Part shown: piece after piece, positions 225 to 58,518 of the stretch | Position numbering within the stretch: position 1 is the first letter of the stretch | Layout: every line of letters starts with the position of its first letter | Origin: Candidatus Omnitrophota bacterium | Lineage (GTDB): Bacteria; Omnitrophota; Gorgyraeia; Duberdicusellales; 4484-171 | DNA length: 64,000 nucleotides | Direction of reading: 5' to 3' | Assembly: GCA_016935525.1 (NCBI GenBank) | Contig: JAFGQU010000004.1 | Location: 65,314-129,313, forward strand | Notes under the pieces: generated by a model | Told to the model about the DNA's origin: nothing | What the model saw: only the letters and a program-made list of their open reading frames with translations | The model's database searches: none | Translations under genes and position numbers: made by a program

Positions 225-1619
225 TCATACCGCAACTTCTTCAATACGGACCGGATAATGCCCCTGGCGGGTATGATAAAACTCAAGGAACTCCTTCGGA
301 GAAAGGGACGGCAAAAGAGCATAGCGTTCTTTGATCTTTTTCTTGAATTCGTGGTGATACCGGATAAACGCCCCCATGTCCTGAGGAAATTCTTCCTCGT
401 CTACCCCCAGGAAGATACCCTGATGACGGGCATAGTTGAATATTTCTTCCCATTGATCGGGCCGGGAGATCCCGATCCCGCGCACTCCGTTAGAAAGCAA
501 AAACACATAGATATCATCGAAATCACCGTGCCGTTTTATATATTTTTTTACCGTCTCCATCGAGCTGGAAGTATTGAACGCCAGCCAGAACGGTACCGAC
601 CGGGTGAGGACCGACCATAACGGCTCCAGCAGCGCGAAACATTCGATCAGGACCCGCCGGGAAACGAAATCGTTCTTTCGGTACCACCAGCGGTAGAAAT
701 CGGCGGTAAACGCGCTGATATCTTCAGGATGGTCAAAAATGATCGTCATTACTTTATATCCGTTCTCTTTCGCGTAACGGATGATATCTTCGTGGAGCTC
801 GGGAGAAAACCCCCATTCGGCTTCTGGATACCGCCCGGTCGTCTCCGGCACGTCCCATTTTTTGAGAGGACTCCCCTGCTCTTTTAAAAATCTGCCCACC
901 CGGTCGCTTCCCTGCAGATATTCCCGATCCGAGACGTCACCTAATCCACCCACCTGAAAAAAATGGTGATCGGAAAACCGGGTTTTTTCCCATTGATAGG
1001 TGCACTCACAGACAAAGAGTGTCCCGCCGGGAATAAGATTGGTTTTTATGAAATGTTCGTACGTTTTTCCCAGCGTCCGGCGTTTCATCCGGAAATACCC
1101 CATCTTGCTCACCATCAACCGGTCCTGGACCGGATCGTGCATCTGATGCATGATCAGTTCGGGATTATGACGGTGAATCTCCTCCGCAACAGGCCGCCCC
1201 CACTCGGCGTCTTGTTTCAAGTCATCCGGGCCCATATCGCGTCGAATCGCTACCAGGAACGTCTGAGGAAGCCAGGGTATATCCAGGGCCGCACAGAGAT
1301 GGACCACCGCCCCGTTGGAAGAACCGATCATCATCCCGGGATACTGCTTGACCGGATACTGGCTGACCGCATGCCGAGACATCTCTTCGGCCTCGATCTG
1401 TGCGATCTTGTGATGGTCGATCCCCTCCATCGCTCCCACCCAGGTATAGATCCTCTGACGGGTTTTTTCCGGTAAGGAATTGAGAATACCACCGATAAAT
1501 CCCGGCAGTTTAGGCGGTAGGCCGATGGCTTCTGCTTCACGTTTGAGATAGTAACTCAAAGAATAAAGCATCGAAGAGGTAGAATCGAAATCGGGGATAT
1601 ACTCTTTGGCTCTGGACAT
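225..1619 (-). CDS. conserved hypothetical protein (464 aa), function unknown
   Basis: Long intact ORF with coding-like composition. No motif I can assign. Lies 7 bp upstream of the ldh stop on the same strand. Confidence 0.45.
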   Translation of the reverse strand: MSRAKEYIPDFDSTSSMLYSLSYYLKREAEAIGLPPKLPGFIGGILNSLPEKTRQRIYTWVGAMEGIDHHKIAQIEAEEMSRHAVSQYPVKQYPGMMIGSSNGAVVHLCAALDIPWLPQTFLVAIRRDMGPDDLKQDAEWGRPVAEEIHRHNPELIMHQMHDPVQDRLMVSKMGYFRMKRRTLGKTYEHFIKTNLIPGGTLFVCECTYQWEKTRFSDHHFFQVGGLGDVSDREYLQGSDRVGRFLKEQGSPLKKWDVPETTGRYPEAEWGFSPELHEDIIRYAKENGYKVMTIIFDHPEDISAFTADFYRWWYRKNDFVSRRVLIECFALLEPLWSVLTRSVPFWLAFNTSSSMETVKKYIKRHGDFDDIYVFLLSNGVRGIGISRPDQWEEIFNYARHQGIFLGVDEEEFPQDMGAFIRYHHEFKKKIKERYALLPSLSPKEFLEFYHTRQGHYPVRIEEVAV

Positions 1620-2693: not shown

Positions 2694-3656
2694 TTATTTT
2701 AATAACGGTTGAATGTAATTAAACAAATATCCGATGGCAACGATGCCCAACGCCGTGATCCCAAAGAATATCAGGATCAACCTCATCCGCATCGCCCGCC
2801 GCAAAAGTACTGCTTCGGGAAGGCTTAAAGCCGCCGTCGCCATCATAAAGCTGAGGGCTGTCCCCAGCGGAATACCTTTCTGAAAAAGTACGACCGCGAT
2901 CGGGACGATCGCCGCACAACTGCCGTACATCGGCACTCCCAGCACGGTCGCGATCAATACCGTAAACCCTTCGGTTTTACTGATAAGGGTCTCAACCATA
3001 TCCTGCGGCACGTAGTTATGGATAACCGCTCCCAACCCCACTCCGACGATGATCCATAGCCAGAGTTTTTTCACGATGGATATCGCTTCATTGATACCGA
3101 ATATTATTCTTGATTTAATCGTCGGAGTCGCCGCACAGGCACATTGAGGATTATTTACCTGTGCCGATATATCTTTCCTTATAAACCGGTCAAGGTTCAT
3201 TTTTCCGAGAATAATCCCTACCATTACTCCGATAAGGATACCGCTTAAAGTATACAGCAGTGTGATCTTCCAGCCGAAAAATCCCAGCATCAGTACCACA
3301 AGGTACTCATTGATCAACGGAGAAGTGATAAGAAACGAAAAGGTGACTCCCAAAGGTATTCCCGCTTCCAGAAATCCGAAAAATATCGGGATAGAAGAAC
3401 AGGAACAGAACGGAGTGACCGCGCCAAACATCGAAGCAAATACATGGCCGAACATACCGCGACGCGCGATCCACTCTTTGATCTTTTGCGCCGACAGATA
3501 ACTGCGGATAAACCCGATAACGGAAATCATCACAAAAAGCAGCAGGATGATCTTGATCGTATCATAGACGAAGAAATGAAGCGGTTCGGCGAACGTGCTT
3601 TCCGGATCGAACCGCAGGACCGAATAGAGCAGCCAGGTTATGAATTCCGATAACAT
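2694..3656 (-). CDS. DUF318/ArsP-like permease with conserved TPFCSCS motif
   Basis: About 8 TM polytopic protein. It carries the AVTPFCSCSSIP motif, which matches the TPFCSCS signature of ArsP-family organoarsenical/thiol permeases, plus a second Cys pair (PQCACAATP). Confidence 0.55.
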   Translation of the reverse strand: MLSEFITWLLYSVLRFDPESTFAEPLHFFVYDTIKIILLLFVMISVIGFIRSYLSAQKIKEWIARRGMFGHVFASMFGAVTPFCSCSSIPIFFGFLEAGIPLGVTFSFLITSPLINEYLVVLMLGFFGWKITLLYTLSGILIGVMVGIILGKMNLDRFIRKDISAQVNNPQCACAATPTIKSRIIFGINEAISIVKKLWLWIIVGVGLGAVIHNYVPQDMVETLISKTEGFTVLIATVLGVPMYGSCAAIVPIAVVLFQKGIPLGTALSFMMATAALSLPEAVLLRRAMRMRLILIFFGITALGIVAIGYLFNYIQPLLK

Positions 3657-3677: not shown

Positions 3678-4382
3678 TTATATCATTTCTAAAAACAAGC
3701 TAGATTTCTCTTTAGAAATAATCTTTCCATCCTGAAGAAAGATCGTACGGGATGCCTGTAACCCCAGTTTAGGATTATGAGTCGCAACGATTATCGTCAA
3801 TCCGTCTTCTTCGTTCAGTTTTTTGAAAATAGAAAATATTTCCTGCGCGCTTTTAGTATCAAGGTTTCCCGTCGGCTCGTCGGCAAGAAGCAGTTGAGGG
3901 GAAACCGCAAGCGCCCGGGCAATCGCTACCCGTTGACGTTCGCCGCCCGATAACTGTTTAGGCAGATGATTGATCCGGTGGCCTAATCCTACCCTTTCCA
4001 TAATCTCAAGAGAATGTTTCCGTTCTTTCGTCATACGGGAAAAATGGAGCGATAATTCGACATTTTCCAGAGCGGTGAGGCTAGGAATAAGTAAAAATTC
4101 CTGAAAAATAAAACTGATAATTCCCCTACGGTATTTCACAAGATCGTTCTCTCGGGCACAAGACACCTCATTCCCCAATACTTCTAACCGGCCACAACTC
4201 ACACTGTCTAAACACCCCATAAGGTCCAATAATGTCGTTTTCCCCGAACCGGACGGCCCCATTAATGAGACAAACTCACCGCATCGTATTTCAAGATCGA
4301 TATTGTTGACCGCATAGATTTCTTCAGCAAATAATTTATATATCTTAGTAAGATTATTCGCTTTGATAACCGGGGTACTCAT
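3678..4382 (-). CDS. ABC transporter ATP-binding protein (MacB/LolD-type)
   Basis: Walker A GPSGSGKTT, ABC signature LSGGERQRVAIARAL, Walker B LLLADEPTGNLD. Confidence 0.85.
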   Translation of the reverse strand: MSTPVIKANNLTKIYKLFAEEIYAVNNIDLEIRCGEFVSLMGPSGSGKTTLLDLMGCLDSVSCGRLEVLGNEVSCARENDLVKYRRGIISFIFQEFLLIPSLTALENVELSLHFSRMTKERKHSLEIMERVGLGHRINHLPKQLSGGERQRVAIARALAVSPQLLLADEPTGNLDTKSAQEIFSIFKKLNEEDGLTIIVATHNPKLGLQASRTIFLQDGKIISKEKSSLFLEMI

Positions 4383-4384
4383 CT

Positions 4385-5569
4385 TTACTCTCCTCGCCTT
4401 ATCGCTTCGATCGGGCGCATCGACGATGCTCTTAATGCCGGATATATTCCGGCAACTAAACCCATAATAATTGCCCCCATAAATGAACTCAGCAAGAGGC
4501 CACCGGTAATAACCACCAGATGACCGCTGGGAGCGTAAGGCAGGATACCGCGTAACATATGTTCCACCAATCTGGCGGCGATTATCGCAAAAAGATTACC
4601 CATTATTCCTCCCCACACACAGATCAAGGTAGTCTCAATCCAGATAATCCGGAAAATATCAAACCGCGATGCGCCAATGGCTTTCATCACTCCGATCTCT
4701 TTTGTCCGCTCGAATACCGACATGAGTATCGTATTTACCACACCGATCACGGCAACAAATATTGCGATGATCGCTATAGAATTGGTCATCACTTTTGCCG
4801 AAGATATCAGATTGAAGATCGTACCGCGTACCTCGGCCATACTTATTACCTGAATCCCGGGTTCATCATAGAGATCTTCTTCAAAACCGGCAATCTGGCT
4901 TATTTCTTTCAATTTTATGCCGATACCGGTGAGCTGGTCCGGTAAACCGAAAATATTCTGGGCAGTGACAAGCGGTAAAAAAATAAGCCCGTCATCCTGA
5001 GTCCCGGTACGTTCGAAGATACCGGCGACCGTAAGGATTTTTTCAATACCCGGGATGAATATTTTATCGCCGATCGAACGTTGTTCGAATTCGGCCGCTT
5101 CATATCCCATAATCACTTCTTCAGCATCGTCTTGAGAAAACCAGTTTCCCGATTTGAATTTTATCCACGGTTTTAAATCAAGAAACGAACGGTGTATGCC
5201 CATATAGAGAGCCAGTCCTCCCTGCCCGTTGTTTTTATCAGGATCATACACGGTATGGACCAGTTGAGGGGTAATCGCCGCGACCCGGGGATCATTGATA
5301 ATCTTGCTATACACCTCTTGATCCATATACCTCAGGCCCCCGCCGCCTTTAAGCATCAGCGTTGCCGCCTCATAAGGGCATCCTTTCGCTGTAATCAACA
5401 CCTGAAATCCCATTTTATCAATATCGCTGCGTAATCCCCGTTGATATCCTTCATCAAAACCCATAAGGCTCACCAGTACCGCGACTGCGACTCCCACCCC
5501 GCCGACAGTCAAAAATGACCTGATCTTTTTCCTTTGTAGATTCTTGAAGGCGATTGCGATAGATTTCAC
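4385..5569 (-). CDS. ABC transporter permease, FtsX/MacB-like
   Basis: N-terminal TM helix, a large periplasmic domain and a C-terminal FtsX-type 3-TM bundle. Its stop abuts the ATPase start. Confidence 0.8.
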   Translation of the reverse strand: MKSIAIAFKNLQRKKIRSFLTVGGVGVAVAVLVSLMGFDEGYQRGLRSDIDKMGFQVLITAKGCPYEAATLMLKGGGGLRYMDQEVYSKIINDPRVAAITPQLVHTVYDPDKNNGQGGLALYMGIHRSFLDLKPWIKFKSGNWFSQDDAEEVIMGYEAAEFEQRSIGDKIFIPGIEKILTVAGIFERTGTQDDGLIFLPLVTAQNIFGLPDQLTGIGIKLKEISQIAGFEEDLYDEPGIQVISMAEVRGTIFNLISSAKVMTNSIAIIAIFVAVIGVVNTILMSVFERTKEIGVMKAIGASRFDIFRIIWIETTLICVWGGIMGNLFAIIAARLVEHMLRGILPYAPSGHLVVITGGLLLSSFMGAIIMGLVAGIYPALRASSMRPIEAIRRGE

Positions 5570-5937
5570 TGTAATTCTACTCCTTGGCCGATCAGAGACG
5601 TATTTCCGGTACGGGCACTTACCGTGCCCTGGACAACCACCTTTTTCCCGACCATCTGGGGAATAGCGAATCCCGAAGGTTTAATATCCACATAGATCTC
5701 TCCGGTCGTATCGTTAAGATTAAACCAACATCCCGACGGGCATTCCCGTACGATCTTCCCGGAAACCGTAACGGTCTTACCGCTAAGTTCTCCCGGATTA
5801 CTGAGAATATTTCTTATCGGTACCGAAGTATACTCTGTAATCGGTTCACCGAACGATTCCGAAGAAACATTCGTAGTACACCCTATAATCAAAATTATAC
5901 CTGTAAATAAAGCTAAAAGATACGTTACCTGTTTCAT
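5566..5937 (-). CDS. small lipoprotein with predicted OB-fold and CPSGC motif
   Basis: Lipobox LIIGC. Beta-rich 123 aa protein with a CxxxC pair. Has 4-nt overlaps with both neighbouring genes. Confidence 0.5.
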   Translation of the reverse strand: MKQVTYLLALFTGIILIIGCTTNVSSESFGEPITEYTSVPIRNILSNPGELSGKTVTVSGKIVRECPSGCWFNLNDTTGEIYVDIKPSGFAIPQMVGKKVVVQGTVSARTGNTSLIGQGVELQ

Positions 5938-6584
5938 GGCCTCTCTCCTTTTTCCACTTTTCCTATACGGCTATTTTGCATACCGTCAAAATAAAACGCG
6001 TCTAAAAGAATAAGATTTTTCTTGATCCCCCGCAACGTATTGAAAAAATCTTCAGTCTCTCCCGGAGTCGGTTGTTTAATTTTTTCCAGCATATCCTGCC
6101 GATATAAGTCTTCTAAACCAAGACCGATGAATTGTTGAGTAAATGATTCATCCCGAAAGTACCGCGCCTGGGGCGAAGATATTCTTTGATAATAAAAATC
6201 TACTATGTTTCCCTCAAGATCGGTCGCAAGAATGATCTGTATCCCGCCGTAAGCCCCTTTTTGATTTATCCCGTGTACCCGGCCGATGACCTCTTTCCCT
6301 TTCAATACATCATAATAGGCATACGGGACATCTTCGGCTTCATAGACCGGATCCAACCGGTCATTAAGAAGCGATTCTACTTTCTTCTTTAATCCTTCTC
6401 GCCCGGCACCCTCTATTGTATGGAAGCTGGTCTTATATCCGGTACTTTCAGGGAAAATACGGCGGAGGTCCCGCTCGGGATCGTTTAAAGTGCATCCTAC
6501 CGCGGCACTGGCCGAATAAGTGATCAACAGGATACCTAAACTAATAAAGACCGTGATTACAGATTTGAAGGAATTAACCGCCAT
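5934..6584 (-). CDS. secreted FMN-binding-domain-like protein
   Basis: Signal peptide or lipobox (AAVGC). The central GINQKGAYGGIQIILATDLEGNIVDF segment resembles the FMN_bind fold. I did not find the canonical flavinylation motif (S/T)GAT. Confidence 0.4.
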   Translation of the reverse strand: MAVNSFKSVITVFISLGILLITYSASAAVGCTLNDPERDLRRIFPESTGYKTSFHTIEGAGREGLKKKVESLLNDRLDPVYEAEDVPYAYYDVLKGKEVIGRVHGINQKGAYGGIQIILATDLEGNIVDFYYQRISSPQARYFRDESFTQQFIGLGLEDLYRQDMLEKIKQPTPGETEDFFNTLRGIKKNLILLDAFYFDGMQNSRIGKVEKGERP

Positions 6585-7584
6585 AATAATAATATTGCAC
6601 TAACACGCTTGTATCAGCCGGCTCATCTACACGATTGAAATCATGGACTAATGCCGCTCTTAACGTAATATTCTCATTTACACGATACGCCAACCCCAGA
6701 CTGATAAGAGAATCATCCTGATTTTGTTCAGCCAGATCGTGAGCGAACGATTGAAACTGTATTTGAAAACTCAGATTTTGATTGCGCGGTAACGTATAAT
6801 CGTATTCTAAAAGATACCCTAATACCTCATCAGAATCATCCTGTCCATACGCTATTTCCCCTTTCACCAGGGAAGCCCCCATCAGTAATTGGCCGTCAAC
6901 ACCGATCCGTCTCTTCGATACCGCAGATTCCGAAAGAAGTCGGTTATGAGGAAACGTCTGCATCCCTTTTACATCGATCACGTCGCCATAGAGGATTGAG
7001 AACCCGTATTGCACATTTTCCGTCGGCGGCGTACCGACCCGCGCGCTCATTAAAAAACTTCTATCATGACGCCTCAGGCTCATTCCCGAACCGACTCCCA
7101 GAGCAAGTTTATAATCATACTTTCTCAAAAAACCTTCCAACGCCATACCCCAATCTTTCTTAAACCCGATATTCAACGGAGCTAACGTCTGTAACACAGT
7201 CCCGTGAGTATCGATTACGGGTTCAAGCCCGAACGCCGGATCGAAATGGCCGATTCTTAAATTCATTCCGTATCCCAATCGATATTGCATCCAGGCATTA
7301 TGCAGCTCGACGGCCCAGGCATCACGAGAATCCTCCAAGCTGTCATAAGAAAAACGTACCTGAAGGTCGGTGGTAAGAAAATCACCGTATTCACCGGAAA
7401 ACTTTCTAAAATCTTCAAAACCAAAAGAATTAGCCAGGGTACTGCTCTTTCCCGTCCATTGCTGTTGACGGCTGTATCCGCCGATAAGGTTGATCTCTTT
7501 ATTAAAAATCCGTTCCGAACCAGATACGGTATCTCCATTTATAAACCAGGCTGCCACCATAACAAATAACACGAAGGATCTCAT
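6574..7584 (-). CDS. outer-membrane beta-barrel protein
   Basis: Signal peptide followed by an alternating hydrophobic, aromatic-rich beta-strand pattern. Has a 4-nt overlap with csoR upstream. Confidence 0.45.
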   Translation of the reverse strand: MRSFVLFVMVAAWFINGDTVSGSERIFNKEINLIGGYSRQQQWTGKSSTLANSFGFEDFRKFSGEYGDFLTTDLQVRFSYDSLEDSRDAWAVELHNAWMQYRLGYGMNLRIGHFDPAFGLEPVIDTHGTVLQTLAPLNIGFKKDWGMALEGFLRKYDYKLALGVGSGMSLRRHDRSFLMSARVGTPPTENVQYGFSILYGDVIDVKGMQTFPHNRLLSESAVSKRRIGVDGQLLMGASLVKGEIAYGQDDSDEVLGYLLEYDYTLPRNQNLSFQIQFQSFAHDLAEQNQDDSLISLGLAYRVNENITLRAALVHDFNRVDEPADTSVLVQYYYYGG

Positions 7585-7865
7585 AACCGATGTAATTTTT
7601 GGACCACTCCGATAAGCTCTTCGATCTTCTTTTTCTTGTTTTTTTCCGCTTTACCGCGAAAGGTATCTACCACGCACGATTCGATATGGGTATGCAATAT
7701 CTTTTCGGCGACCCGATACAGCGCGTTGATCGAAGCATGGATCTGATTGACGATATCGATACAATATTCTTCTTTTTCGATCATCCGCTGGACACCTTTC
7801 ACCTGTCCCTCAATACGCCGCAACGCGGCAAGTTGTACCGTATGAGTCGTTTTTTGTTTCATCAT
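7581..7865 (-). CDS. csoR: CsoR/RcnR-family metal-sensing transcriptional repressor (copper-type C-H-C ligand set)
   Basis: 94 aa predicted helical-bundle protein. It carries Cys (EEYCID) and the HTHIESC motif, giving the x-C-H-C copper-ligand pattern of CsoR. Confidence 0.75.
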   Translation of the reverse strand: MMKQKTTHTVQLAALRRIEGQVKGVQRMIEKEEYCIDIVNQIHASINALYRVAEKILHTHIESCVVDTFRGKAEKNKKKKIEELIGVVQKLHRL

Positions 7866-7886: not shown

Positions 7887-8429
7887 TTATTCGTCCACTA
7901 TTAATTTTGCCTTCATCTGGCTATGCCCCCGGCCACAGTATATCGAACATAAAACAGGAAATTCTCCGGTCTTATCGGCGACGAACTCGATTTTTTTCAC
8001 CTCACCTTTCTTCACCGTTGCGTTAATCCCATATTCTCCGATATACACTCCATGCGGGACGTCACGCGAGGTAGCCATCAGGCATACGATATCCCCTTTA
8101 TTGACAATTATATCCTGGGGTTCATATCCGAACCGGTAAGCTTGAAACGGTATTTCTTTTATCTTGGAAATATACTTTTCGGGATCTTCTTTGAATTTCC
8201 CGATACACATCGGGCAGCAGAAATAATACGTTTTACCTTTATAGGTATAAGAATATTCTTTCTGAGCCTCACCGCCCATTACCGGACAGATGCCCAAATC
8301 ATTCTCCGCCGACGGCGTCCCCATCTGATGAGCCATCCCCTGCCCCATCTCTTCACCATGATGATCTTGAGCCGTTACGCTTAAAGCCCCCAGACAAAAC
8401 AAGCCGATTAAAAAAATAACCTTTTTCAT
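7887..8429 (-). CDS. secreted YHS-domain + CuA-like cupredoxin copper-binding protein
   Basis: Signal peptide. YHS/TRASH motif CPVMG...YYFCCPMC. C-terminal cupredoxin region with H...[12 protein letters not shown], which matches the CuA pattern CxxxCGxxHxxM. Confidence 0.7.
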
Positions 8430-8444
8430 ACATATCCCCCCTAC

Positions 8445-8480
8445 GCAAGCCTATCATACCCCCTGGGGGTATGTCAATGA
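8445..8480 (-). promoter_or_regulatory. sigma70-like promoter overlapped by a perfect CsoR-type operator palindrome (ATACCCCC-N-GGGGGTAT)
   Basis: On the sense (minus) strand the sequence reads TTGACA-taccccc(a)gggggtatga-TAGGCT, then AGGGGGA RBS, then ATG at 8429. The 8+1+8 palindrome lies at 8456-8472. Confidence 0.55.
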
Positions 8481-8511: not shown

Positions 8512-9156
8512 TCAATGCTCATGACGGATACTTTCAGGGTTTTTCACAAAAAAAAGAGGAAAGACGATATCGCTTACGCAACAGGGCACCCATACCGCAA
8601 TAAATAGGAATAAGAATATCGCGGCATAAGCAAAAAAACTCACCGTCGCTCCTTTCGCCATGAGAATATGGAACAACGAAGCTGCGGTACTGACCAGAAC
8701 GTGGGCAAAATGAGGGAATTTGGTCGCGGGGTTGATATAGGCGATCATAATACCGATAAGCGCCATAGTCGTAATCAGCCACCATCTCTCGAGAAATCCG
8801 ATATGAGCATGCCGGTGCGGCATATCCAACAATACTTCTCCTATATAAGGCATGATCGAATCGCTTACCGTCGCAACTCCGATCGAACCTACATAGCCGA
8901 TTACCAACAACACAAAAAGGTTACAGTGACGCCGGTTATGGGGACAGACATGACGGTGGTACATCGAAGCGGTCACAAGAGCACTGAGGAGTACGTGAGC
9001 CGGATGGAATACGTAAAAGAATTCGTAAGAGACCTCGGGAGTGATGTTACGTAAGAATGCGATCAACCCGATGCCTAATAACGCTCCTAATGCCGTAAAC
9101 GGAGCATGATGACGTAATTCTTTGACGATCTCTCGGAACATAACGGTAGTGCTCAC
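8512..9156 (-). CDS. His/Cys-rich integral membrane protein (putative metal handling)
   Basis: 5-6 TM helices with clustered His/Cys (HRHVCPHNRRHC, MPHRHAHIGF, VPCCVSD). Its start overlaps the glgP stop. Confidence 0.45.
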   Translation of the reverse strand: MSTTVMFREIVKELRHHAPFTALGALLGIGLIAFLRNITPEVSYEFFYVFHPAHVLLSALVTASMYHRHVCPHNRRHCNLFVLLVIGYVGSIGVATVSDSIMPYIGEVLLDMPHRHAHIGFLERWWLITTMALIGIMIAYINPATKFPHFAHVLVSTAASLFHILMAKGATVSFFAYAAIFLFLFIAVWVPCCVSDIVFPLFFVKNPESIRHEH

Positions 9157-11630
9157 TTATGATAAGGGACGCGCCATATTTCTTTGGCGTATTCGGCGAT
9201 AGTCCGGTCGCTGGAAAACCGTCCGGCTTTAGCGACGTTGACGATACTCTTTTTCGTCCATTCTTCCTGATCCAGATAACATTGCGAGACTTTCTGCTGC
9301 ATTGCCAGATACGAATCGAAATCGGCACAGATCATAAACTTATCGTCACTTTCCAGGGATTGAATAATCGGTTCAAAGATACCGGGATTATAGGGAGCAA
9401 AAAAATTCGTCCGTAACAGATGGAATATATCGCGCAGTAACGGTGATTTCTGGATAGAATCATGAGGATTATACCCTTGCCGTTTTAGCGTCGCGACTTG
9501 TTCGGCAGTATGCCCGAAAATAAAAATATTGTCGCGGCCGACTTCCTGAGAGATCTCGACGTTTGCCCCGTCAAGCGTCCCGATAGTGAGCGCTCCGTTC
9601 AGCATAAACTTCATATTCCCGGTACCGGAAGCTTCGTATCCGGCAGTCGAGATCTGTTCGGACACATCCGATGCCGGAAATATTTTTTCCGCCAAGGATA
9701 CCCGGTAATTTTCCAGAAACGCCATACGCAGTTTATCTTTTATCGATTTATCCCGGTTGATCATATCGGCGATACTGGTCAGGAACTTTATAGTCAACTT
9801 TGCCATGACGTATCCCGGAGCGGCTTTTCCGCCCACCAGAAACGTCCGGGGATACACGAATTTTTTCGGGTCGTGTTTAAGCAGTAAATATTGCGATACG
9901 ATATAAAATCCGAAAAGGATCTGGCGTTTATACTCATGCATCCGTTTCACCTGCACATCAAAGATAGATTCCGGGTCGATCATGATCTCGGTTGTACGGG
10001 CGATATATTCGGCAAGTTTCTTTTTATTCTCATGTTTGATGTCCCGCCAGGCCTTGCGGAATGGAGCTTTGTCTTTATACGGGATCAATTTACTTAATTG
10101 CGACAGATCGATCACCCATTTGTCACCGATGGTATTGATGATCAGGTCCGACAAACCGGTATTGGCTTTCAGTAACCAGCGGCGTTGAGTGATCCCGTTC
10201 GTTTTATTATTGAATTTTTTAGGGAAAAATTCATAGAAATCGCGGAAGACCCCGGTCTTCAATAGTTCGGTATGTAATTCCGATACCCCGTTTACCGAAT
10301 GGCTTCCCACAATCGCCAGGTTCGCCATGCGGATCCGTTTATGGTCGCCTTCCTCGATGATCGACATCCTGGCGATACGGCCTTCATCGCCGGGAAACCT
10401 TTGCGAAACTTCTTCGAGGAACCGTTTATTGACCTCATAGATAATCTGCAGGTGTCGCGGCAATAGATTCTCCAGACGCGCCACCGACCATTTCTCCAAA
10501 GCTTCCGGCATCACCGTATGGTTAGTATAGGCAAATATCTGCACGACAATATCCCACGCTTCTTCCCATTGAAAATCGCTCTCATCAAGTAAAATACGCA
10601 TTAACTCGACGATACCCAAAATCGGGTGGGTATCGTTAAGTTGAATCGTCACTTTATCCGGCAGTTTAGACAAGTCTTCGTTTTTGACCCGGAACCGGCG
10701 GATAATATCGGCAATGGATGCGGCGACAAAAAAGTATTCCTGTTTAAGGCGAAGTTCTCTCCCCTGGCTGATATCGTCCATGGGATACAATACTTTGGAG
10801 ATGTTTTCCGAAAGGATCTTTTCATGTACGGCCTGTTCATAGTCGCCCTGATTAAAATATTCCAAATCGAATTCTTCGGTACTGCGTGCCGACCATAACC
10901 GCAACGTATTGACTACATCGTTCTTATATCCGGGGATCGGATAATCATAGGGCACCGCGAGGATGTTCTGGGTATCGACCCAATCCACACAAAACCGGCC
11001 GTGACGGTCTTTATACATCTGGGTCCTCCCGTAAAATTTTACCCGTACGGTATACTCCGGCCGGGCAAATTCCCAGGGGCTTTCCCGCCGTAACCATTCA
11101 TCAGGCAGTTCTATCTGAAACCCGTCTTTTATCTTTTGATGAAAAATACCGTAATCGTAACGGATACCATATCCGTATCCCGGGATGCCTAACGTCGCCA
11201 TCGAATCAAGAAAACAGGCGGCAAGCCGGCCTAATCCGCCGTTACCTAACCCGGCATCGAGTTCCTGCTGGCGAACCTCCTCAAAATTAAGGCCCAGTTC
11301 CGTAAGAGCCTGCGCGGTTTTATTCTCTAATCCCAGATTGAAAATATAGTTCCCCAAAAGCCGGCCGATTAAAAATTCCATTGAAAGATAATAGACCCGT
11401 TTCACATTCGCTTTATGATAATGCTGTTGAGTGTTGATCCAACGTTCCACTACCCGGTCACGGACAGTGAGCGCTAATGCTCGGAAATTGTCTTCCAGCG
11501 TCGCGCTGTATTGGTCTTTGGAAAGGGCATATTTTAAGTTGGCGCAGAATGAGGTCACAATACCTTCAACGGTATTTTTTTTACTGATCTCATCGCATTT
11601 TTCCTCTAGTTTTTTATTCATTTTTGCCAT
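9153..11630 (-). CDS. glgP: glycogen/alpha-glucan phosphorylase
   Basis: PLP-lysine motif EASGTGNMKFMLNGALTIGTLDGANVEI. About 825 aa from the internal Met (MAKMNKK). The ORF as reported extends to 11705. Confidence 0.9.
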   Translation of the reverse strand: MAKMNKKLEEKCDEISKKNTVEGIVTSFCANLKYALSKDQYSATLEDNFRALALTVRDRVVERWINTQQHYHKANVKRVYYLSMEFLIGRLLGNYIFNLGLENKTAQALTELGLNFEEVRQQELDAGLGNGGLGRLAACFLDSMATLGIPGYGYGIRYDYGIFHQKIKDGFQIELPDEWLRRESPWEFARPEYTVRVKFYGRTQMYKDRHGRFCVDWVDTQNILAVPYDYPIPGYKNDVVNTLRLWSARSTEEFDLEYFNQGDYEQAVHEKILSENISKVLYPMDDISQGRELRLKQEYFFVAASIADIIRRFRVKNEDLSKLPDKVTIQLNDTHPILGIVELMRILLDESDFQWEEAWDIVVQIFAYTNHTVMPEALEKWSVARLENLLPRHLQIIYEVNKRFLEEVSQRFPGDEGRIARMSIIEEGDHKRIRMANLAIVGSHSVNGVSELHTELLKTGVFRDFYEFFPKKFNNKTNGITQRRWLLKANTGLSDLIINTIGDKWVIDLSQLSKLIPYKDKAPFRKAWRDIKHENKKKLAEYIARTTEIMIDPESIFDVQVKRMHEYKRQILFGFYIVSQYLLLKHDPKKFVYPRTFLVGGKAAPGYVMAKLTIKFLTSIADMINRDKSIKDKLRMAFLENYRVSLAEKIFPASDVSEQISTAGYEASGTGNMKFMLNGALTIGTLDGANVEISQEVGRDNIFIFGHTAEQVATLKRQGYNPHDSIQKSPLLRDIFHLLRTNFFAPYNPGIFEPIIQSLESDDKFMICADFDSYLAMQQKVSQCYLDQEEWTKKSIVNVAKAGRFSSDRTIAEYAKEIWRVPYHK

Positions 11631-11717
11631 AGGGCTCCTTCTCTCAGCCGGCACCTTCATCCGGTACCAGCATATTATTATATGGCAGAAAGCGGTATCT
11701 GCCAATTATTCTGATTT

Positions 11718-20292: not shown

Positions 20293-21729
20293 TCATTTCA
20301 AAGATTCCTCGCCGCGCCGGCAGATCTCTTTGGCGTATTCAGTCCATACCCCCTGCCCCCAGTAACGGAAACAGCTGGTCTGGGACAACAGCAGGTAGAG
20401 TAACGCCTCTTTATATCTTTTATCGGCAGGATCGGGTTGTTTCTTGAACTTTTCATGAAAAGAAACGCTTAACGTATTGATCGGATCAAGGATATCTTCA
20501 TATCCTTTCACCCAGCTACGGTCATTGGTCCAGGATCCCCGGTCGAGATTGAAACTCGAGTCTTTCTGGTGAATTTTCTCGATCGCACGATCCGCCGCGC
20601 CGGGCGAGAATGTGGAAACTTCCTGCCAGATCCGATGCTGCGATATCGGTTGTATCGCGTCAAACGCATCTTCTTGTATCCCCTGCCCTTTGACATATTC
20701 AAGATATTCCGAGCCGTTCATCGCGACTACGCCTTCAGTTGAGATTTCACCGAACGCCTGTTTGAACCCGGCGGGAAACTCGTTCATCATTACTCCCCCG
20801 TTTTCTCCATCGCCGATCTGAAGCACAAACGGACAGATCGTCTTTTTTCCGTACTCTCGAGGATGTAAGCCTTTGGCTTCATAATAGGGTTGCATCTGGG
20901 CAACGAGTTTAGTATCCGACCCTTGAGTCTTGATCAAAGCGGTGATCTCGGCAACTTCATTTTTTGAATTTTTCGCGATCAACCGGTGAGGGAAATGAGG
21001 GTTACGGATGCCGGAACCGTCAAGATTCTCTACGGTATGTTCCTGGACCATAAGCCACTGGTATCCGCATTCTTTTAACGCTTTGATGTATTCATAACAT
21101 ACATCCGGATGTATGGGCAGATGCATTTCCGGTGGAGAAAAACCTTTTACTCTTCTTAACGCGTCCATTCCGAAAAGAGAAGCAAAATGGTGCCGCCAGG
21201 CGAGCATATGCAGTTTAAGATCGCACACCGGAGTGGAACTTGCCACCGCATGCGACCACATCGTACCCAGCCATTCCGCGTAACGATAATACTTCTTATC
21301 GCAGGTGATCTTTTTCAGATTCTCGATCACCTGAGTCTGGCCCATCTGAGGAAGGCCCCAAAACAAGTTGCCCGAATAATCAAGCATCACCCGGGGATTT
21401 TTCCCCTCCGAGACTAATTCACGTATGAAATCGGATATCCGGCTATAACACCATAAGAATACCGAAGCATTATGATTATCACCCATATCCTGATGTTCCA
21501 TCATATGCTGAAGGTTAGAGATAAGGCCGGCGCCTCTTATATCATCGGTGGATGCGGGAATAGTCGGCTGATGCATATGCAGAGCGACCCCGAAAGACGC
21601 CCGGACCCGGTCAAAATGAAGATTGGAAGTGTCCCGATAATCGTTCTTCACGGAAGACTGCAGCTCTTTTTCTGAATAAGTACCCCAGATATCAGGAAAC
21701 TGAGTAACACGAGGAATAGTCGTTTTCAT
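20293..21729 (-). CDS. glycoside hydrolase family 57 protein (AmyC-like, about 480 aa)
   Basis: Region I ALHMHQP, region III GFSPPEM, region IV GDGENGG. Start placed at MKTTIPR, which gives an ATGA overlap with the upstream branching-enzyme stop. The ORF as reported extends to 21858. Confidence 0.7.
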   Translation of the reverse strand: MKTTIPRVTQFPDIWGTYSEKELQSSVKNDYRDTSNLHFDRVRASFGVALHMHQPTIPASTDDIRGAGLISNLQHMMEHQDMGDNHNASVFLWCYSRISDFIRELVSEGKNPRVMLDYSGNLFWGLPQMGQTQVIENLKKITCDKKYYRYAEWLGTMWSHAVASSTPVCDLKLHMLAWRHHFASLFGMDALRRVKGFSPPEMHLPIHPDVCYEYIKALKECGYQWLMVQEHTVENLDGSGIRNPHFPHRLIAKNSKNEVAEITALIKTQGSDTKLVAQMQPYYEAKGLHPREYGKKTICPFVLQIGDGENGGVMMNEFPAGFKQAFGEISTEGVVAMNGSEYLEYVKGQGIQEDAFDAIQPISQHRIWQEVSTFSPGAADRAIEKIHQKDSSFNLDRGSWTNDRSWVKGYEDILDPINTLSVSFHEKFKKQPDPADKRYKEALLYLLLSQTSCFRYWGQGVWTEYAKEICRRGEESLK

Positions 21730-44436: not shown

Positions 44437-46215
44437 TCAGACGCGGGGGACGGTAAAACTGAAGGTAGATCCTGTTCCTAACTCGCTCTTCACAAATACC
44501 TCGCCGCCATGAGCGACGATGATATGTTTCACGATGGACAAACCGAGTCCGGTTCCGCCTAATTCCCGGGAACGGGCTTTATCGACCCGGTAGAACCGTT
44601 CGAAAATACGCGGGACATCGGAAGAGGGAATACCGATACCGGTATCGGTCACCTCTATCCGTACCAATTTCTCTTGGGAGCGTGCGCGGATATATATCCG
44701 GCCACCTTTACGGTTATACTTTATGGCGTTATCGATAAGATTTAAAAGCACCTGAGCCAGACGGTTTTCATCGCCGAGAACCGCCGGGATATCAGCCGGG
44801 ATATCTTTCTCGATCGTGATCGTATTTTTCTCGGCGTATTTCTTTAACCCGGAAACGACCCGGTCAAGGACCGGAGGGATATTACAGGGTTTTAAATCCA
44901 GTTTCAGTTTTCCCGATTCGATCTTGGAAAGATCGAGGATATCATCGATAAGCCAGGCGAGCCGGTCGGCATCGGAATAAATGATCCGGACAAAATCTTC
45001 GGCATTCTCTTTATCCTGGAGAGCCCCTTCCAGAAGGGTCTCGGCATATCCTTTAATGCTGGCGATGGGAGTGCGCAGTTCATGGGAAACGTTCGCGACA
45101 AAATCCCGGCGGACCCGTTCCAGCCGTTTCAGTTCGGTCACATCATGGAATACCAAGACCGCTCCTTCGATCTGTCGTTGCCGGATGACCGGCGTGGCAT
45201 AGACCAGAAGCACTTTTTCCTGGGGGATGAATATGGAAAGTTCCCGGGTAGTCACTGCCCGTTTATGCTGTAACACGTCGTCGGTTATCTCCTGGATCTC
45301 GATGTTACGGATGACTTCCAACGGTTTTTTTCCGGCCGGATCCGAATTGATCGACCATAGATTCTGTAACGTATGGTTCATCAGCAATATCGAACCGTCA
45401 CCGTCGACTACCATGACCCCTTCGAACATGCTTAACAGGACCGCTTTCAGGCGGGCCGTACTTGACATCACCTCTTCGATCCGGGATTTTATCTGTTCAG
45501 ACATATAATTGATAGTCTTAGCCAATTCCCCGATCTCATCGTTCGTCGAGACCCAGATCCTCCGGGAAAAATCTCCGCCGGCGATACCGCGGGCGGTCGA
45601 AGCGATCTCTTTTATCGGCCGGGAAATGAAGACTAACGCGACGAAACTTACCGGTATCGCCAGAAAGAAAGTAGCGATAAGAGCGAGGAAAAGGATCTTC
45701 TTCAAGCGGGCGGAAATCAATTTTATTTCCGAAAGCGGCAGAGAAAGCCGGACTACTCCTTCCGGACGGGTACTGCCGAATACGGAGGCGATATACAGCA
45801 TCTCCTGGTCGACCGTAGCGCTGAACCGGCGGCTTTCTCCGGTTCCCGAAACAAAAGCATCCTGTACTTCCGGACGATAGAGATGGTTCTCTACATTGTA
45901 GAGAGTTTCTCCGTCAAGCTCGGAATCACCCAACACCTTACCGTCAAGGCCGATGATCGTGACTCTTACTCCCAGGTCCCGGCTGATCTTATCGGCAACA
46001 GGATCTAACTCCTGATACCCGAGGTTTTCTGAAAAATATTCTTCAAGCAACGATTGTGATAACAGAGTCTGCTTGAGAAGGTTCTCTTTTATCCGGGAAT
46101 AGGCATATTGCCGCAGATTATAATTAAGATAAAAAAATATTCCCAATAGACTCACGGCAAAAATAACCGCGAACACAAAAGTGATCTTCACATGGAGGTC
46201 TACCCGTAATCTCAT
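44437..46215 (-). CDS. phoR: phosphate regulon sensor histidine kinase (PhoR-like)
   Basis: 2 TM plus HAMP, PAS, H-box SHELRTPI, HATPase (DTGIGIP, GGTGLGLSIVK). Adjacent to phoB and pst. Confidence 0.8.
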   Translation of the reverse strand: MRLRVDLHVKITFVFAVIFAVSLLGIFFYLNYNLRQYAYSRIKENLLKQTLLSQSLLEEYFSENLGYQELDPVADKISRDLGVRVTIIGLDGKVLGDSELDGETLYNVENHLYRPEVQDAFVSGTGESRRFSATVDQEMLYIASVFGSTRPEGVVRLSLPLSEIKLISARLKKILFLALIATFFLAIPVSFVALVFISRPIKEIASTARGIAGGDFSRRIWVSTNDEIGELAKTINYMSEQIKSRIEEVMSSTARLKAVLLSMFEGVMVVDGDGSILLMNHTLQNLWSINSDPAGKKPLEVIRNIEIQEITDDVLQHKRAVTTRELSIFIPQEKVLLVYATPVIRQRQIEGAVLVFHDVTELKRLERVRRDFVANVSHELRTPIASIKGYAETLLEGALQDKENAEDFVRIIYSDADRLAWLIDDILDLSKIESGKLKLDLKPCNIPPVLDRVVSGLKKYAEKNTITIEKDIPADIPAVLGDENRLAQVLLNLIDNAIKYNRKGGRIYIRARSQEKLVRIEVTDTGIGIPSSDVPRIFERFYRVDKARSRELGGTGLGLSIVKHIIVAHGGEVFVKSELGTGSTFSFTVPRV

Positions 46216-57793: not shown

Positions 57794-58285
57794 TTAATTC
57801 TGTATGAGCAAAGTGATTTCTACCGGAATAAGTCCGCGATCAAGCGAAGCAATACGGGCAAATGCGGCACGGGTCAGATCGATTATTCTGCCGTTTTTTA
57901 CCAAACGTCTTGCCGGGCCACGATCGTTGACCCGTACCACTACGTATTTGCCGTTCTCAAGGTTTTTCACTTTGATCAGAGTATTAAACGGCACGTCCCA
58001 TAAGGCACAGGTAAGCTGAGAATCATCGAATTTTTCCATATTCGCCGTGGTGGGAAGGATCCCGGGATCGGTCTCGGAATACCATGAAGCTACTCCCTGT
58101 TGAGAGATGTGCTCATCAAATTGAGCCGTTATTTCCTGGGAAAAACCGGGAAATACAAAGAAGATCAGGGTACATATGCCCAAAAAGACGGCGATGAACC
58201 GCGTGTGAGAGGCAAATAAAAAACCCATCTTAAGCTTAAAGATGGGTTGAATTATGAAACGTACCAGTGGCAACCGGGCTACCAT
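57794..58285 (-). CDS. RlpA-like double-psi beta-barrel (septal ring lytic transglycosylase family) protein
   Basis: GVASWYS...GKYVVVRVNDRGP DPBB signature. N-terminal TM/signal sequence. Confidence 0.7.
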   Translation of the reverse strand: MVARLPLVRFIIQPIFKLKMGFLFASHTRFIAVFLGICTLIFFVFPGFSQEITAQFDEHISQQGVASWYSETDPGILPTTANMEKFDDSQLTCALWDVPFNTLIKVKNLENGKYVVVRVNDRGPARRLVKNGRIIDLTRAAFARIASLDRGLIPVEITLLIQN

Positions 58286-58518
58286 AGGATTCCTCCTTTA
58301 GGTCCAAGGCTTTGCGTCCCCCGATTTCTCGGAGTTTGCCTTTTTCACTTTGAGAGACTGGTATATTTTATCAGTCCCTAAATTGTCAATTATCTCCTAC
58401 ATTCTACCTAATATATGCCATATATACGGCCAGAAAATCAAGGCCCCGGCAGAAAAAAAACAATCTTTGGTTACAATGTATTATTCAGGGGGTGTCTTCA
58501 CAGAATGGATGCATTGTA

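Follow-up and report, generated by a model that had tools for sequence, protein, structure and literature searches.

In this contig of an uncultured Omnitrophota bacterium, a perfect palindrome lies directly in front of a string of genes, which raises the questions of which regulator would act at this site and to which signal it would respond. The analysis covered 64 kb of the contig (hereafter the window), and all positions given below without a locus number refer to it. The gap that holds the palindrome measures 82 bp; it runs from the stop of the upstream gene, at 8512, to the first member of the string, whose genes are all encoded on the minus strand and are separated by gaps or overlaps of −11 to +21 nt. 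On the plus strand, positions 8456-8472 read ATACCCCCTGGGGGTAT. This is the perfect 8-1-8 inverted repeat that a preliminary description of this DNA had claimed, and a repeat finder extended it even to a perfect 9-1-9 repeat, CATACCCCC-T-GGGGGTATG (8455..8473, no strand assigned), with a single base between the arms.

The palindrome is embedded in what appears to be a promoter. Read on the minus (sense) strand, the order of elements is cat-TTGACA-TACCCCCAGGGGGTATGA-TAGGCT-tgcgtAGGGGGGAtatgt-ATG. The -35 hexamer TTGACA (8477..8472) abuts the box with an overlap of 1-2 nt, sharing the last base of the 8-1-8 repeat, and the spacer between TTGACA and TAGGCT amounts to 18 nt, which the palindrome fills completely. 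TAGGCT (8453..8448) would function as part of an extended -10 element, TG-a-TAGGCT (8456..8448, minus strand), the TG of which (8456..8455) is formed by outer bases of the 9-1-9 palindrome. As TAGGCT agrees with TATAAT at only three of six positions, a generic promoter scan did not call a promoter with this hexamer at the locus, and positional conservation in relatives was therefore used for the assignment instead (see below). The ATG of gene 1 (8429..8427, minus strand) follows 18 nt downstream of the -35/box/-10 unit and 26 nt downstream of the box itself. It is preceded at a distance of 5-6 nt by the Shine-Dalgarno-like sequence AGGGGGGA (8442..8435, minus strand), which contains a run of six G (8441..8436); the ribosome-binding site had been given as AGGGGGA in the preliminary description and is corrected here. 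Judged from the position of the -10 element, transcription is predicted to start near 8441, which would result in a leader of approximately 11-13 nt that begins within the Shine-Dalgarno sequence. We also observed that the operator's left half (ATACCCCCT, 8456-8464) recurs in the region of the ribosome-binding site (ATCCCCCCT, 8434-8442), at a distance of 22 nt, or about two helical turns. This recurrence may be accidental, given a G-rich Shine-Dalgarno sequence, or may represent an auxiliary half-site.

The form of the box points to the CsoR family. The general operator motif of these repressors, 5'-TAC-N9-GTA-3' (the 'GTA dyad') flanking G-tracts, is found in Streptomyces lividans, Staphylococcus aureus, Listeria monocytogenes and Bacillus subtilis, and a consensus for streptomycetes, ATATACCCCTNAGGGGTATAT, is most conserved at positions 3-8 and 14-19 (PMC3902906). 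A base swap in the TAC/GTA dyad abolished binding, and two tetramers were found per site; the operators of S. lividans read TATACCCCCTAGGGGTAA (copZA2) and GTACCCCCTAGGGGTAT (copZA1) (PMC3902906). In the window, positions 8457-8471 consist of TAC-CCCCTGGGG-GTA and thus form the dyad, the C5-T-G5 tracts are present, and the conserved ATACCC and GGGTAT blocks of the Streptomyces consensus are matched at 12 of 12 positions, which bears out the earlier statement that the site resembles known CsoR boxes (PMC3902906). With its TAC-N9-GTA dyad, its C/G tracts and its ATAC/GTAT arms, the site is most similar in kind to the operators of csoR, copZA1 and copZA2 in S. lividans, the 'type 2' operators of the CsoR/RcnR family. 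The core of the two copZA sites (TACCCCCTAGGGGTA) and that of the window site (TACCCCCTGGGGGTA) are nearly identical and differ only in the centre. In contrast to S. lividans, the window site does not match the AT/AT at the very ends of the 21-nt consensus; it is furthermore perfectly symmetric, placed exactly in the -35/-10 spacer and followed by an eight-gene operon without copZA.

A candidate for the protein that would bind this box is found within the operon itself. Its second gene, gene 2 (7865..7581, minus strand), codes for a 94-aa protein that matches PF02583, 'metal-sensitive transcriptional repressor', with an E-value of 7.5e-25 and 87.6 bits (cutoff 22.8), and the box is thereby linked to csoR through the promoter of the operon. 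The best relatives with solved structures are CsoR of S. lividans (4ADZ, 2.9e-15), of Geobacillus thermodenitrificans (4M1P) and of Mycobacterium tuberculosis (2HH7). Residues C35, H60 and C64 align on the Cu(I) ligands of the S. lividans protein, which we take to be C75/H100/C104, and on those of the M. tuberculosis protein, with a Cys-His-Cys spacing of 25/4. In M. tuberculosis CsoR, the ligands are C36/H61/C65, and the x-C-H-C pattern is the fingerprint of copper sensors (PMC8643695). Second-shell residues (Y34 and E83) and DNA-contact residues (R17 and Q41) are present as well; in an alignment of 29 homologues, C35, C64, Y34, E83, R17 and Q41 were invariant and H60 nearly so. R17 and Q41 are the counterparts of R57 and Q81 in S. 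lividans, the alanine mutants of which gave no binding isotherm, DNA binding being abolished (PMC3902906). The regulator has the C-H-C ligands and the R57/Q81 equivalents in common with its S. lividans counterpart, as well as autoregulation, which is predicted from the position of the box; it differs in the RLXR motif, in which the first Arg is replaced by Ala (ALRR).

Could such a site arise by chance? In the window, perfect palindromes whose arms measure 8 nt or more are fairly frequent: we counted 18 hits (approximately 15 distinct sites) compared to about 5.6 in first-order Markov simulations, an excess of about two to three times. Two other long examples are CATACATCCGGATGTATG (21098-21115) and ACCGATACCGGTATCGGT (44632-44649), both of the 9-0-9 type. 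Palindromy was therefore rejected as evidence by itself, and significance was sought in the particular motif and in where it lies. When up to three mismatches are allowed, the 17-mer occurs in the 64-kb window solely at 8456-8472 (0.17 occurrences expected), and the exact pattern TACCC-N5-GGGTA is likewise found once in the window, at this site. Scored with a weight matrix derived from 95 distinct boxes near csoR homologues elsewhere, the site obtained 28.0 of a maximum of 29.5 bits, whereas the runner-up in the 64 kb reached 15.3 bits and lies inside a coding region. The regulon scan that had been suggested earlier, run over the 64-kb window, thus returned one box only, and a second CsoR site was not found in it. 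The concern that many palindromes might be equally good, which had also been voiced in the preliminary description, holds for palindromes in general, which are in excess, but not for the specific motif, which is unique in the window and enriched upstream of csoR.

The commonness of perfect palindromes is also what lends some credit to the view that the repeat is accidental, or that it acts in RNA as a hairpin or as the terminator of the upstream gene (8512-9156); the sequence is indeed able to form an 8-bp hairpin. Against the RNA variant, no U-tract comes after the palindrome on the sense strand, a terminator scan made no call at the palindrome, and the region folded no better than shuffled sequence (z = −0.24), so that a hairpin or terminator was rejected. 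A search of Rfam returned nothing at the operator locus. Against chance speak the uniqueness of the motif in the window and its conservation at orthologous promoters, where the central bases vary. We consider an accidental or RNA-level origin extremely improbable.

To follow the box beyond the window, one genome per species was scanned with a CsoR alignment, which yielded 80 csoR-homologue loci from many phyla (individual loci are given below as L numbers). TACCC-N5-GGGTA is present in 57 of 82 loci. Within the 80 loci (approximately 600 kb), we found 67 boxes compared to 0.44-0.53 expected, or about 130 times the expectation; for 48 of these boxes, the distance to the csoR gene downstream is 0-200 nt. 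The closest relatives, whose CsoR proteins are 47-68% identical to the one in the window, belong to the Omnitrophota and Planctomycetota. The box was found at orthologous promoters in L003, L005, L013, L015, L016, L083, L085, L127-L132, L134 and L135, and its five central bases vary among close relatives. The promoter layout is retained together with the box: a cTTGACA directly 5' of the box and TGnTAnnnT after it occur in L003, L005, L013, L015, L016, L127-L132 and L134. At the position of TAGGCT, the relatives carry TATATT, TATACT, TATAAT or TAAACT, mostly after TGn. These are much better -10 hexamers at an identical position and support the assignment of TAGGCT, to which the comparison adds the extended -10 TG. 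The coordinates and this conserved layout confirm that TTGACA and TAGGCT flank the box on the sense strand as first described, and they agree with the proposed repressor-on-promoter architecture, in which the box would fill the -35/-10 spacer in the window as in the relatives. One locus deviates from the pattern: in L133, the box upstream of csoR (~4640-4654) has a broken left arm (TAGGGTAGGGGGGTA), with TTGACA and TGGTATACT kept; this operator may have decayed or may be asymmetric.

A dyad between -35 and -10 is also what an activator of the MerR/CueR type would bind, and the position of the palindrome as well as an 18-nt spacer slightly above the optimum, combined with a weak -10, would suit such a regulator. 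MerR-type promoters have spacers of 19-20 nt, though, which is longer than the 18 nt found here, and no MerR-family gene is present among the adjacent genes examined. The co-occurrence of the box with csoR across phyla at approximately 130 times the expectation, together with its match to sites shown to bind CsoR (PMC3902906), makes a different regulator of this kind very unlikely. Placement of an operator in the -35/-10 spacer has in addition a precedent within the CsoR family itself. NreA, a nickel-responsive member from Mesorhizobium, likewise uses a dyad operator in the -35/-10 spacer of the compact promoter of the regulator's own operon (PMC12724321).

We therefore interpret the palindrome as the operator of the CsoR-family repressor that is encoded by gene 2 of the operon, with an estimated probability of about 0.85. 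This reading is supported by the motif match, by csoR in cis, by the enrichment of the box near csoR and by the conserved promoter layout. It sustains the earlier claim of a CsoR-type operator, as far as can be judged from sequence, since a PF02583 gene with the x-C-H-C pattern lies in the putatively controlled operon and 67 boxes stand against 0.5 expected. What counts against it are the weak -10 (TAGGCT, 3/6) and the very short leader that the promoter would imply, together with the likeness to CstR operators, the conserved His8 and the absence of copA from the window that are taken up below. By analogy with characterised CsoR proteins, apo-CsoR would bind the TAC-N9-GTA/C5-T-G5 box in such a way that two tetramers sandwich one operator. 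As the box fills the whole spacer between -35 and extended -10, the bound repressor would exclude RNA polymerase. A rise in cytoplasmic Cu(I) would then lead to Cu(I) being held by Cys35, His60' and Cys64', upon which the repressor would leave the DNA and the operon would be transcribed. The genes released in this manner would comprise a YHS-CuA-cupredoxin protein, CsoR itself (negative autoregulation), a porin-like protein, an RnfG/NqrC-like protein, a DUF4920 protein, a MacB-type ABC transporter and probably an ArsP_1 permease. Binding, its stoichiometry, the transcription start, the effector and the extent of the operon are all predictions.

The only serious rival to this reading concerns the effector. 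The same pair of operator and repressor could respond to a signal other than Cu(I), either to persulfide and related reactive sulphur species, as in CstR, or to nickel or cobalt, as in the H-C-H-C sensors of the InrS/NreA/NcrB type. The cst operators of the persulfide sensor CstR, ATATACCCTTATGGGGTATAT, have the same form and are practically indistinguishable from the window site (PMC8643695). Because CstR and CsoR operators look alike, the box does not define the effector, and the assignment of copper rests on His60 and on the gene context. CstR proteins do not have a His at the Y position, which in the window protein is occupied by His60 (PMC8643695), a residue that is required for Cu(I) allostery; the gene context is moreover of the copper type and, unlike in CstR loci, devoid of a sulfurtransferase or persulfide reductase. 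A nickel or cobalt sensor would gain from the N-terminal His8, which is invariant in the clade of the regulator and leaves room for a possible fourth ligand as in the H-C-H-C sensors. His8 is located 10 residues before Ile18 of the RIEGQ motif; the W-position His of RcnR and InrS presumably lies approximately 15 residues before the same Ile, so that His8 would be about 5 residues out of register. The operator of the nickel sensor NreA differs as well, having TCC-N9-GGA arms instead of TAC-N9-GTA and a single G7 tract (type 1), and NreA differs further in its nickel effector and its leaderless transcript (PMC12724321).

The gene content gives arguments for both sides. Neither copA nor copZ is among the cargo genes of the window, which would be in favour of a different effector: no copA gene and no HMA motif were found in the 64 kb, and the cargo hence differs from that of the classic copZA regulon. 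Gene 1, on the other hand, carries a YHS domain and a CuA-type motif, the window also contains the gene of an SO_0444-like permease, and in relatives the orthologous boxes stand before genes for Cu-type P1B-1 ATPases and Cus-like pumps. Two box promoters per locus were found in L127/L128 and in L129/L130. The first one precedes a copA-type P1B ATPase with an HMA CxxC, CPC, SEHP and MxxSS (in L127, a small P-II gene is located between the promoter and the ATPase gene), and the second one precedes genes in the order YHS-cupredoxin-(x)-csoR-OEP-CusB-like-RND. In L131/L132, csoR-OEP-x-CusB-like-RND stands behind the box. Boxes before copA-type ATPase and Cus-like genes are what a classic copper regulon looks like, and they speak for Cu(I) as the effector in this clade. 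Taken with His60 and the TAC/GTA arms, an effector other than Cu(I) appears improbable, at roughly the level of an outside chance.

With Cu(I) as the preferred effector, the question arises what the CsoR-family repressor would control. Gene 1 (8429..7887, minus strand) encodes a secreted protein with a YHS domain (Pfam YHS, 8.4e-12) and a CuA-type cupredoxin domain (COX2, 1.1e-6). It consists of a signal peptide, a His/Met-rich N-terminal stretch, the YHS domain and the cupredoxin domain with the motif C-x3-C-x3-H-x2-M; its best partial matches are the C-terminal domain of NosZ and CoxB, and orthologues come after the CsoR box in L127-L130. Downstream of csoR, gene 3 (7584..6574, minus strand), the start of which overlaps the csoR stop, encodes a porin-like outer-membrane protein of 336 aa that shows a weak similarity to Porin_4 (2e-4, below the curated cutoff); a porin-like gene is kept after csoR in L003 and L133-L135. 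The 216-aa product of gene 4 (6584..5934, minus strand), which has an N-terminal anchor, gave no Pfam or NCBIfam match. Its AlphaFold2 model (pLDDT 89) resembled RnfG/NqrC, which are FMN-binding subunits, in a Foldseek search with an E-value of approximately 1e-4 and a TM-score of approximately 0.5. More than 440 homologues with 50-65% identity exist, all of them unannotated, and Thr183 in the motif 'ATLRG' is nearly invariant; it lies, in approximate register, roughly where RnfG and NqrC carry the flavinylated Thr. Gene 5 (5937..5566, minus strand) encodes a DUF4920/OB-fold protein of 123 aa, gene 6 (5569..4385, minus strand) a MacB/FtsX-type ABC permease (MacB_PCD, 1.3e-19; FtsX, 3.1e-18) and gene 7 (4382..3678, minus strand) an ABC ATPase of the LolD/MacB type. 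After a gap of 21 nt follows gene 8 (3656..2694, minus strand), which codes for an ArsP_1 permease (7.2e-65) with similarities to the NCBIfam families SaoE (1e-32) and SO_0444 (Cu/Zn efflux, 5e-29), both below their cutoffs. A terminator scan called none inside the gene string. Gene 8 is probably the last gene of the operon; co-transcription is predicted, with the end of the operon behind either gene 7 or gene 8.

The six genes from csoR to the ABC ATPase (3678-7865, minus strand) recur as a unit. The order csoR, porin-like gene (~337 aa), gene for a 207-218-aa protein without a Pfam family, DUF4920-like gene, MacB/FtsX permease and ABC ATPase was found again in L003 (4001-8197), L133 (4677-8851), L134 (4675-8891) and L135 (4691-8871), with a permease identity of 67-74% in these loci. 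A box precedes csoR in L003, L134 and L135, with the degenerate version described above in L133. The slot after csoR, which is occupied by this module in the window, contains the CusCBA-like genes OEP-CusB-like-RND in the relatives L127, L129 and L131. The presence of a CusCBA-like pump in the same slot in sister genomes suggests that the module may be an alternative envelope system for the handling of copper. It may be, although we would put this at somewhat below even odds, that such a system, hitherto undescribed, is widespread in Omnitrophota and Planctomycetota and replaces CusCBA after csoR. The module might, for example, link a redox reaction in the periplasm to ATP-driven expulsion. 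The literature searched contained no mention of DUF4920 and no link of CsoR to a MacB-type transporter, and a search for Omnitrophica together with CsoR gave nothing specific.

Compared to the CsoR-copZA systems of B. subtilis, S. aureus and Listeria, in which Cu(I) releases a tetrameric repressor from a G-tract pseudopalindrome at a copper-export promoter (PMC3902906), the locus stands apart in its genes, a YHS-cupredoxin protein and a module of a MacB-type ABC transporter and a porin-like protein, and in its host, a diderm bacterium of a candidate phylum. The operator is conventional, and the unusual part of the locus is the conserved, undescribed cargo module. The arrangement is a textbook one in an uncultured Omnitrophota bacterium and not a new mechanism; it will not surprise a specialist, and the operator by itself leaves the current understanding of CsoR unchanged. 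Its value lies rather in a confident regulatory annotation at the sequence level in the Omnitrophota, a candidate phylum without a cultured or genetic model, and in the finding that conservation of the CsoR box, and of its position between -35 and -10, reaches far beyond the Firmicutes and Actinobacteria, in which both were defined. The box can also be used as a regulon marker, which ties the MacB-type ABC module and the 216-aa protein with its more than 440 homologues to metal stress, probably copper stress.

Some further features of the window were observed in passing. The gene upstream of the promoter (8512-9156, minus strand) encodes a His-rich multi-pass membrane protein of 214 aa without a family match and ends 34 nt upstream of the -35 hexamer; its GTG start overlaps the stop of a glycogen phosphorylase gene (9153-11705). 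As this gene was not found in any of the related csoR loci that were examined, it was left out of the system. Downstream of an L-lactate dehydrogenase gene (1627-2583), an ORF of 464 aa (225-1619, minus strand) gave no Pfam match. At 58266-58350 on the minus strand, the window contains a c-di-GMP-I riboswitch aptamer (RF01051), which matches the model over its full length with 79 bits compared to a gathering score of 35.
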